In this document: positions 14,309-36,395 of the stretch, piece after piece | How the letters are laid out: the number at the start of each line of letters is the position of its first letter | Numbering within the stretch: the stretch's first letter is position 1 | Source of the DNA: Octopus vulgaris | Lineage: Eukaryota | Direction of reading: 5' to 3' | Length of the DNA stretch: 64,000 nucleotides | Assembly (NCBI GenBank): GCA_951406725.2 | Contig: OX597823.1 | Location: forward strand, 92,938,001 to 93,002,000 | The notes under the pieces: model-generated | Databases searched by the model: none | What the model was told of the DNA's origin: nothing | Seen by the model: the letters and a program-made list of their open reading frames with translations, nothing else | Position numbers and translations under genes: made by a program

Positions 14309-14646
14309 TACATACATTGTTAAATAGATTAATAAATGCATCTATGTATATGTATGAATGCGCATATAGACATATATCTATATGCATCTGCCTCCGTGTG
14401 TGGCTAAGCGACATCGGAGTTCAGTCTTAGAGTATTTATAGTATTAAAATATTGCTAGAGAAGTATTGAAGTAGGAAGACGAACAGATCGAAAGATAAGA
14501 TATAAATAGCGAAGGTCATAAAGGAGAAACGATATACATACATACATACATACATACATACATACATACATACATACATACATACATACATACATACATG
14601 CATGCATGCATGCATACATACATACATACATACATACATACATACA

Positions 14647-14680
<34 letters not shown>

Positions 14681-14681
14681 C

Positions 14682-14721
<40 letters not shown>

Positions 14722-14726
<5 letters not shown>

Positions 14727-15034
14727 CGTCATCGTGAATGACCAGGATATCAGATGTTGCTATACGTCGCTGGTCATAATGCGCTTGGCATTGTTTTAGC
14801 TTTCATGTGACGCCACCCCGCTGGCTAAGCGAGCAGGCCAACAGAAGAAAGAGAGAAAGTTGCGGCGAAAGAGTACAGCAGGACTCAGTGAACATCGACA
14901 CCTCGAACGCACATTGCGGCCCCGGGATCCTATCGTCCCGGGGCCCCGTCTTGTCGAGAGGCGGTCACGACACGAAACCGCGATCCTACAAGCGCGAGTC
15001 CGCTGCCCTAACCACTGAGCCATTGCGCCTCCAC
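14722..15034 (-). mobile_element. SINE family C (head GTGGAGGCGCAATGGCTCAGTGGTTAGG), tail type 1, middle replaced by a 5.8S rRNA fragment
   Basis: Same head and CT-rich linker as 35690-36045 and 49815-50182; A-box intact, B-box region truncated at GGTTTCG. Confidence 0.9.
14878..14966 (+). rRNA. 5.8S rRNA 3'-half fragment (non-functional, embedded antisense in a SINE)
   Basis: GCAGGACTCAGTGAACATCGACACCTCGAACGCACATTGCGGCCCCGGGA...TCCCGGGGCCCCGTCTTGTCGAGAGG aligns to metazoan 5.8S (GCAGGACACATTGA.CATCGACAC.TCGAACGCAC.TTGCGGCCCCGGG...CCCGGGGC.ACGCCTGTCTGAG), including the GC-rich hairpin. Confidence 0.88.
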
Positions 15035-35089: not shown

Positions 35090-36395
35090 GAGCATTGACT
35101 GAATACTTCCTTCCTCGAGTGAAATTGTTAGGATTCTTGCCCTTGCTGCCAGACAAAGGTCACATCGTCTGCTCCCGTTTATATTAGTCCCTAGTTGTTC
35201 AAGAATCTTCCATTTAATTATGCACGAGGTTCCTTCATCTTTTAAGTTCCATCCGTATCTGTCTAGGGACGTGATGTTGCACCTTTCTGGGTATGCTAAA
35301 AGAGGAGTTGTGTTTGTTCAGGAGTCAAACCGACATATTTTCCTGCCTGTGTATCAGCTGTGTTAACATCTCCGATGTTTCTTTCGTTAACGCCAATGTC
35401 ATTGTTGTGATTGTTGGAGTTGCCGCCGGTGTTGATATTCCTTCATGTGATTCTGGCAGTTGTGGTACTGATGACATAGCAGCTATCTCCAGCTGCAAAG
35501 TTGGTGTTGTTGCTGCCGTTGTAACTGTTGGTATTGTTGTCTCTGCTGCTTGATATGCTGCTGTTGCCACCGACGTCGCAGCTGCCATTGCTGTCGATGC
35601 TGCTGTTGTCGGTGGAAGTATCTTTGCTGCTTAGTCTCTTACCCTCGCTACTACTGTTGCCGCTGGTGCTGTTGCAGCTGTTGCTGTTGAGCGTAGCGGT
35701 CTTCGTCCAGTGGGAGAAGTTCGAAACGAGGTCCTTTGCTATTCGTAAGACCCGCAGAAGAGAGAGCAGGTCAACCTCCAACACCAAGAGCAGCGACGGA
35801 TGGATGAATGCGCATCCAGGCTCAGCAGTTGCGTAGGAAGTCGGGGACAAGAAACAGGAAGAAAGAGTGAGAGAAAGTTGGAGCGAAAGAGTACAACAGG
35901 GGTCGCCACCACTCTCTGCCGGAGCCTCGTGGAGCTTTAGGTGTTTTCGCTCAATAATCACACACAACGCCCGGTCCGGGAATCGAAACCGCGATCCTCC
36001 CTCCGCGAGTCCGTTGCCCTAACCTTTGGGCCATTGCGCCTCCACTTGCTGTTGCCGCTGTCGTTGTTGTCGATGTTGTTGCTGTCGCTGGATGTGTCGT
36101 TGTTGCTTAGGCGCTTGCTCTGGATGGCAGTGTCAGTTACCACCTCAGCCTCATACACGACCCCCTCGTCTTCTCAATAACTCCACCACCGAGCAGTCAT
36201 TGCATACACTACATGAGCATCCTGTCTCTCTTCGAGGTTTAGGAGTGCTCTTTAAATGTTCCTTAATGTTGGGTACGCAAGCATAATATACCCTCGAGTT
36301 GTGCCTGTTAAACAAATGTCCGTATCTGAATGACTGTGTGAAGTATTTGTCAACCAATTTAAAGAATAATCTTCCCACGCAGGTTTAAACTTTGA
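35090..36395 (-). pseudogene. Penelope-like element (Naiad-type) linker plus GIY-YIG endonuclease relic, interrupted by a SINE
   Basis: VGRLFFKLVDKYF...HLFNRHNSRVYYACVPNIK...GCSC..C..C, then VVYEAEVVT ... KYVGLT, NKHNSSF, TSLDRYGWNLKDEG...IKWKILEQ...NGSRRCDLCL. Confidence 0.88.
35690..36045 (-). mobile_element. SINE family C, tail type 2, full length with 9-bp TSD
   Basis: Head GTGGAGGCGCAATGGCCC...GGTTTCGATTCCC; TTGCTGTTG direct repeats at 35681-35689 and 36046-36054. Confidence 0.93.

Follow-up and report, generated by a model that had tools for sequence, protein, structure and literature searches.

How did a piece of ribosomal DNA come to lie, in antisense, in the middle of a SINE, and is the resulting chimera a single event or one member of a family of such elements? 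The question is raised by a locus in a 64,000-nucleotide stretch of Octopus vulgaris DNA (the whole stretch that was analysed, hereafter the window), in which a first-pass annotation had proposed a SINE with its body swapped for antisense 5.8S rRNA. Two origins had been offered, either microhomology-guided repair or template switching, or a 5.8S-bearing SINE subfamily whose transcript could pair with rRNA. We examined the locus itself and surveyed the host genome (2.8 Gb, 227 contigs).

The chimeric SINE and its rDNA patch

An Rfam search of the window returned nothing at the gathering threshold. Below it, the plus strand matched 5.8S at 14849-14963 (33.3 bits, E 4.8e-7); being partial, this match falls short of the 42 bits set for gathering. 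The rDNA-derived stretch 14878-14977 was identical at 97 of 100 positions to a tandem rDNA unit (L005) on another contig of the same genome, and with these two results the proposed chimera was confirmed. Its host is a tRNA-type SINE of ~308 bp at 14723-15034 on the minus strand. The tail is abundant (2927 first-look candidates genome-wide), and we used its 29 best matches in the genome to define the extent of the element; a family majority sequence built from 29 copies served as the reference for SINE comparisons. Relative to this reference, 90 bp of rDNA had been substituted for 83 bp of SINE body, in good agreement with the first estimate of ~90 bp for ~82 bp. The fragment is also antisense to the SINE as described, the patch lying on the plus strand and the SINE on the minus strand. 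The features of the locus are as follows.

14533 to 14722, no strand: microsatellite of (TACA)n/(TA)n units next to the SINE 3' end, from sequence inspection
14723 to 14882, minus strand: retained SINE 3' body and tail, with 148 matches, 12 mismatches and 4 gap positions against the majority sequence
14878 to 14882, plus strand: left microhomology GCAGG, common to SINE and 5.8S
14883 to 14972, plus strand: 90-bp patch unique to rDNA, consisting of the 5.8S 3' half (to about 14963) and 9 nt of ITS2
14918 to 14945, plus strand: intact G+C-rich 5.8S hairpin, with 10-bp arms at 14918-14927 and 14936-14945
14973 to 14977, plus strand: right microhomology CGAAA, common to SINE and ITS2
14973 to 15034, minus strand: retained SINE 5' head (family C), 62 nt, 60/62 identical to the family majority sequence

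The intact hairpin and the left junction on a shared GCAGG had thus been read correctly. CGGTC, which had been noted near the right junction, was rejected as the crossover because the bases between CGGTC and CGAAA follow rDNA, and the crossover is CGAAA. Two other descriptions stood in part. The patch is the 3' half of 5.8S as far as 14963, but it extends beyond this into ITS2; the SINE tail is retained as stated, but only 62 nt of the head remain. At 15012-15022 the head carries an A-box-like motif of the kind found in tRNA promoters, and both this motif and the tail are intact. A B-box-like motif is cut at the right junction and loses its invariant A, and it is here that the copy fails to show an intact Pol III promoter. 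Because the motif is broken, Pol III transcription of the patched copy is predicted to be unlikely, and from its sequence the copy would be dead or a poor Pol III template.

Exact microhomology of at least 5 bp is expected by chance at 0.54% of random SINE and rDNA breakpoint pairs, and at both ends with a probability of about 3e-5. At the right end the resemblance continues onto the retained SINE side as a stretch of homeology in which 11 of 14 bases are alike, a level attained by 42 of 2089 pairs of SINE and rDNA positions with a 5-nt seed. No target-site duplication was found around the patched SINE within 3 kb, in a search weakened by the microsatellite. Flanking matches of at least 10 bp, many of them simple repeats, were present in 15 of 23 full-length sister SINEs.

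The patch differs from the array unit at 3 positions, one of which, 14968, is common to older dispersed rDNA copies. The patch has C at this position, as do L003, L011, L018, L021, L024, L065 and L068, while C occurs in 0 of 7 tandem array units examined. The array lies on contig C20, where 18S-5.8S-28S was confirmed and the units are spaced at about 18.4 kb. Counted from GCAGG, the patch is rDNA-specific to +94, past the mature 5.8S 3' end. Because it extends into ITS2, its donor would not be mature 5.8S but a 3'-extended precursor, rDNA or a fragment of rDNA; as templates, rDNA and pre-rRNA are identical in sequence. Comparison of L021, L024, L065 and L068 with L003, L011 and L018 and with L004-L010 shows that dispersed rDNA fragments preserve at least three successive rDNA types, C53/C90, T53/C90 and T53/A90, which could serve as a clock for concerted evolution. 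Two rDNA fragments, L016 and L019 (C1:41395447 and 41397188), lie 1.7 kb apart in opposite orientations.

Elsewhere in the window, an ARAGORN search found nothing, no gene context was evident by eye, and the 139 stop-to-stop frames of at least 90 aa look like translated simple repeats. Matches to microRNAs proved to be microsatellite and were discarded. Other matches to the SINE family within the window are confined to positions near 0.5, 35.9 and 49.9 kb. The copy at 35.9 kb (35770-36046) had been taken as a sister, which it is in its family head and body but not in its 3' tail, which is different. One further SINE copy (L022) ends in an RTE-like tail that is also found in L023, and 3' tails have been swapped within the family. 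SINE heads at L038, L048, L054 and L061 share a recurrent 14-nt deletion between two short internal direct repeats.

Authenticity and copy number

Both partners of the junctions are high-copy, and the right junction was not seen bridged among the contigs listed from other samples, as might be expected of an assembly or library chimera. Against this, a 100-bp contig of run X4 bridges the left junction, covering 14824-14923 without gaps and with 54 and 41 letters either side of the microhomology. Its depth was 48.7, versus 52.1 for the unique right flank, and with its 4 differences it does not come from the assembled sample. In runs X3 and X4 the SINE head is joined to the same right flank. Among the contigs listed, runs X1, X3 and X6 gave none that bridges a junction (X1 is without cover of the unique flank), and an unpatched allele was not seen. 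The base at 14968, shared with old dispersed copies and found in no tandem unit examined, also speaks against an artefact. We therefore regard an artefact as very unlikely and argue for a real, inherited and older event, in which the left junction alone is read-supported.

Counting the junctions had been suggested as a way to tell a one-off event from a subfamily. Each junction 24-mer matched the 2.8 Gb once at up to 2 mismatches, with controls at 0, which by that reasoning makes the chimera a one-off event. When a chimeric 166-mer was used as query, the window's copy alone aligned end to end among the 40 candidates scored out of 1454. We also looked for SINE copies whose interior had been swapped for a longer one; there were 348 matches, and no wholesale interior swap was apparent in the letters shown for the 100 listed.

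These results bear directly on the idea of a propagating 5.8S-bearing SINE subfamily with an antisense transcript that pairs with rRNA. The A-box-like motif and the tail are intact, which is in its favor, and the B-box-like motif is broken, which is not. Precedents exist in rRNA-derived SINEs known for 5S and 28S, according to the available part of a review (PMC10946416). However, the junctions are single-copy and the element is 1 of 79 5.8S copies in the genome, which argues that no 5.8S-bearing SINE subfamily exists. By these counts the patched SINE is a one-off, and we find a subfamily barely credible.

Other 5.8S copies in the genome

A 24-mer from the 5.8S core matched 79 genomic places at up to 3 mismatches. 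We classed these copies by alignment, using a five-member repeat library drawn from these loci and the SINE majority sequence.

35 of 79: ITS sequence present, no library repeat immediately downstream
36 of 79: ITS-free, with a repeat following in sense
7 of 79: ITS-free, without a recognised partner
1 of 79: antisense and internal, the window's copy

The window's copy was the only antisense, internal case. The 36 sense fusions, 5 of which are the library's own sources and 2 of which have a repeat of unnamed type, place 5.8S 5' of a SINE or LINE-like tail (for example L022:1433-1770, L025:1433-1830, L063, L069, L070, L072, L103, L110 and L125). Their partners include at least four SINE-like families, one RTE-like tail and one unnamed repeat. 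Most of them start close to the mature 5' end, and none extends beyond +87 (from GCAGG); the modal end of ITS-free copies is +83. Because the joints vary between copies, the fusions look like independent events. The joint starts with T in 16 of 21 near-full-length fusions, and with four or more T in 4 of 21; a target duplication surrounds the whole fusion in 5 of 13 tested. Across 8 chimeras in which 5.8S and SINE were inserted together, 5.8S had diverged at 56 of 1163 positions versus 143 of 1923 for the SINE part.

Reverse transcription has plainly used 5.8S RNA as a template often in the Octopus vulgaris genome, and the sense fusions may be likened to U6/L1 chimeras, of which they would be the 5.8S analogue. 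They possibly record uridylated 5.8S ends, or SINE 5' flanks may simply be T-rich. In open-access main texts we found no report of 5.8S/SINE chimeras. Where the joints are T-rich, the sense fusions could preserve a record of the states of the 5.8S rRNA 3' end, and we consider the sense chimeras a more interesting lead than the window's patch. At L071 (C7:9558500-9560200, minus strand) there is a three-part copy in one orientation, with a putative U6-like stretch, then 5.8S, then a SINE head. At L111 (C6:79677918) a truncated 5.8S (-48 to +55) is joined, in the same orientation, to a tail of the window's SINE family that is itself truncated at the 5' end.

The genome also holds a second rDNA patch, at L106:598-707 (C20:16339777), where about 110 bp of the 5.8S 3' half and ITS2 replace about 20 bp of another abundant repeat, different from the window's SINE. 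It carries the old C allele. Its junctions, which were resolved by genome search, are less clean than those of the window's patch. Three of 4 intact copies of the host repeat have terminal inverted repeats of 17-23 nt, about 180-195 nt apart, suggesting a MITE-like element. Since the host is not a SINE, SINE reverse transcription is not needed for such patches. Among 16 short 5.8S copies, no pair with a collinear host repeat was found within the fetched loci.

Origin of the patch and comparison with known systems

The 5-bp microhomology at both ends, the near-equal lengths and the second rDNA patch all support the branch of the original proposal that invoked repair or template switching. We consider the patch to be probably the scar of microhomology-guided repair of a germline DNA break. 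A break or gap would have fallen within the SINE, and one resected end, probably the head-side end, pairing over 11 of 14 bases with ITS2, would have primed on an rDNA or pre-rRNA template. After 90 nt had been copied, the new strand would have annealed to the other end at GCAGG, with the loss of 83 bp. By this route the antisense orientation would be incidental. Strand logic excludes first-strand SINE reverse transcription onto sense rRNA, because the opposite orientation would result. Priming on a sense template, whether from the broken end on the head side or from a second strand under synthesis, fits the exact product, and a DNA template fits equally. We also considered an antisense rRNA template of a risiRNA-like kind (PMC7472701, PMC8450093). 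There are 2-3 differences from rDNA in the 90 positions of the patch and 14 in the 222 of the SINE parts, a contrast that is not significant (P 0.07-0.17). The 5.8S part is the less diverged one in co-inserted chimeras too, and thus the patch may be as old as the SINE. Counting against repair are the missing target-site duplication on the SINE, the less clean junctions at L106 and the frequency of 5.8S reverse transcription.

The last of these points could favor a double template switch in the retrotransposition of the SINE itself, during second-strand synthesis. Here a LINE reverse transcriptase would leave the cDNA after 62 nt, copy 90 nt of a 3'-extended 5.8S precursor and return in register. 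The strand logic suits a second-strand switch onto sense RNA, the lengths are near register (83 versus 90), the ages of patch and SINE are compatible, 36 of 79 5.8S copies show that retrotransposition machinery uses 5.8S RNA, and double jumps have been published (PMC2104539, available part). Yet none of the 36 sense-fused copies runs past the mature end, the L106 patch sits in an inverted-repeat element, which favors general break repair over template switching, and in the available accounts published chimeras have the same orientation and flanking direct repeats, whereas this one is antisense, internal and without a target duplication. We judge such a switch unlikely. Less likely again is a composite in which two SINE copies were joined via the patch, or in which antisense 5.8S and a SINE tail entered an older SINE head by twin priming; in its two-copy version the DNA between the joined copies would have been lost. 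A composite of this kind is consistent with the lack of a target-site duplication within 3 kb and with a tail that is 7.5% diverged versus 3.2% for the head, and twin priming is credited for antisense 5S and tRNA pieces at the L1 5' end in the accessible part of a preprint (bioRxiv 10.1101/2025.02.02.635956). The difference in divergence is not significant (P 0.36), however, no remnant of a SINE body was found past the microsatellite, and the near-exact register would be a coincidence.

Within the preferred break repair, a narrower version is possible, and we hold it tentatively: the patch would be a germline fossil of RNA-templated repair, in which the broken SINE end reverse transcribed a 3'-extended 5.8S precursor RNA. 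Such repair may then be one of two routes of 5.8S capture, an equally tentative suggestion, the other being that of mature, often T-extended 5.8S placed before SINEs. Should patches of this sort turn out to derive from pre-rRNA, nature would have supplied evidence that breaks in the germline of an animal can be repaired from an RNA template. Taken as a single scar, the window's patch carries little weight, although it is a clean, base-resolved distant templated insertion, readable because donor and recipient sequences are both known, and the patched SINE is a usable marker between the lineages that share it.

Among known systems, RNA/LINE chimeric retrocopies include U6/L1, 5S/L1, 28S/L1 and tripartite forms (bioRxiv 10.1101/2025.02.02.635956; PMC2104539, available parts), and the available text of the preprint does not contain the term "5.8s". 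As in the window, an rRNA fragment is fused to a retroelement, and some of the 5S and tRNA pieces described there are antisense. Their RNA, as far as these texts go, lies at the insertion 5' end inside shared target duplications, whereas the window's patch is internal and replaces body sequence. The same orientation, a 5' RNA and flanking direct repeats are all absent from the window's element, the microsatellite weakening the repeat search; the 36 sense 5.8S/SINE copies belong with this class and the window's element does not. The rRNA-derived SINE3 (5S) and SINE28 (28S) resemble it in having rRNA sequence inside a SINE. They are multi-copy families (PMC10946416), and no 5.8S-derived SINE is among those given in the available part of that review. 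The window's element has a broken promoter motif and a single copy, not several dispersed copies with the same junctions. A human screen that included 5.8S describes tailless copies of pol I rRNA as rare (PMC5322556, available part). We found no report of an internal 5.8S patch in a SINE in open-access main texts.

Closer parallels come from templated insertions. Distant insertions of the MMBIR/Alt-EJ type have 0-20 nt of junction microhomology, are primed by it, and copy and paste from repetitive regions, with rDNA among the donors set aside in the analyses (PMC11724301; PMC8421209, as far as available). Those are induced or somatic, in yeast and cancer, whereas the window's scar was inherited through the germline. 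Class 2 templated sequence insertions, or TSIPs (Onozawa and Aplan, PMC5110952), are described in the available portion as 73-414 bp patches from a distant locus, with microdeletion and microhomology and without target duplication or poly(A) at the patch. The word "ribosomal" is absent from the main text of that paper, and the present case differs in having rDNA or pre-rRNA as donor and an invertebrate SINE as recipient. Otherwise the likeness is close. The patch was copied from a distant intact locus, represented by the rDNA units on another contig, it has 5 bp of microhomology at both ends and an 83-bp deletion, and its junctions show neither target duplication nor poly(A), so that, judged by sequence, it agrees with a class 2 templated sequence insertion in those features that can be tested.
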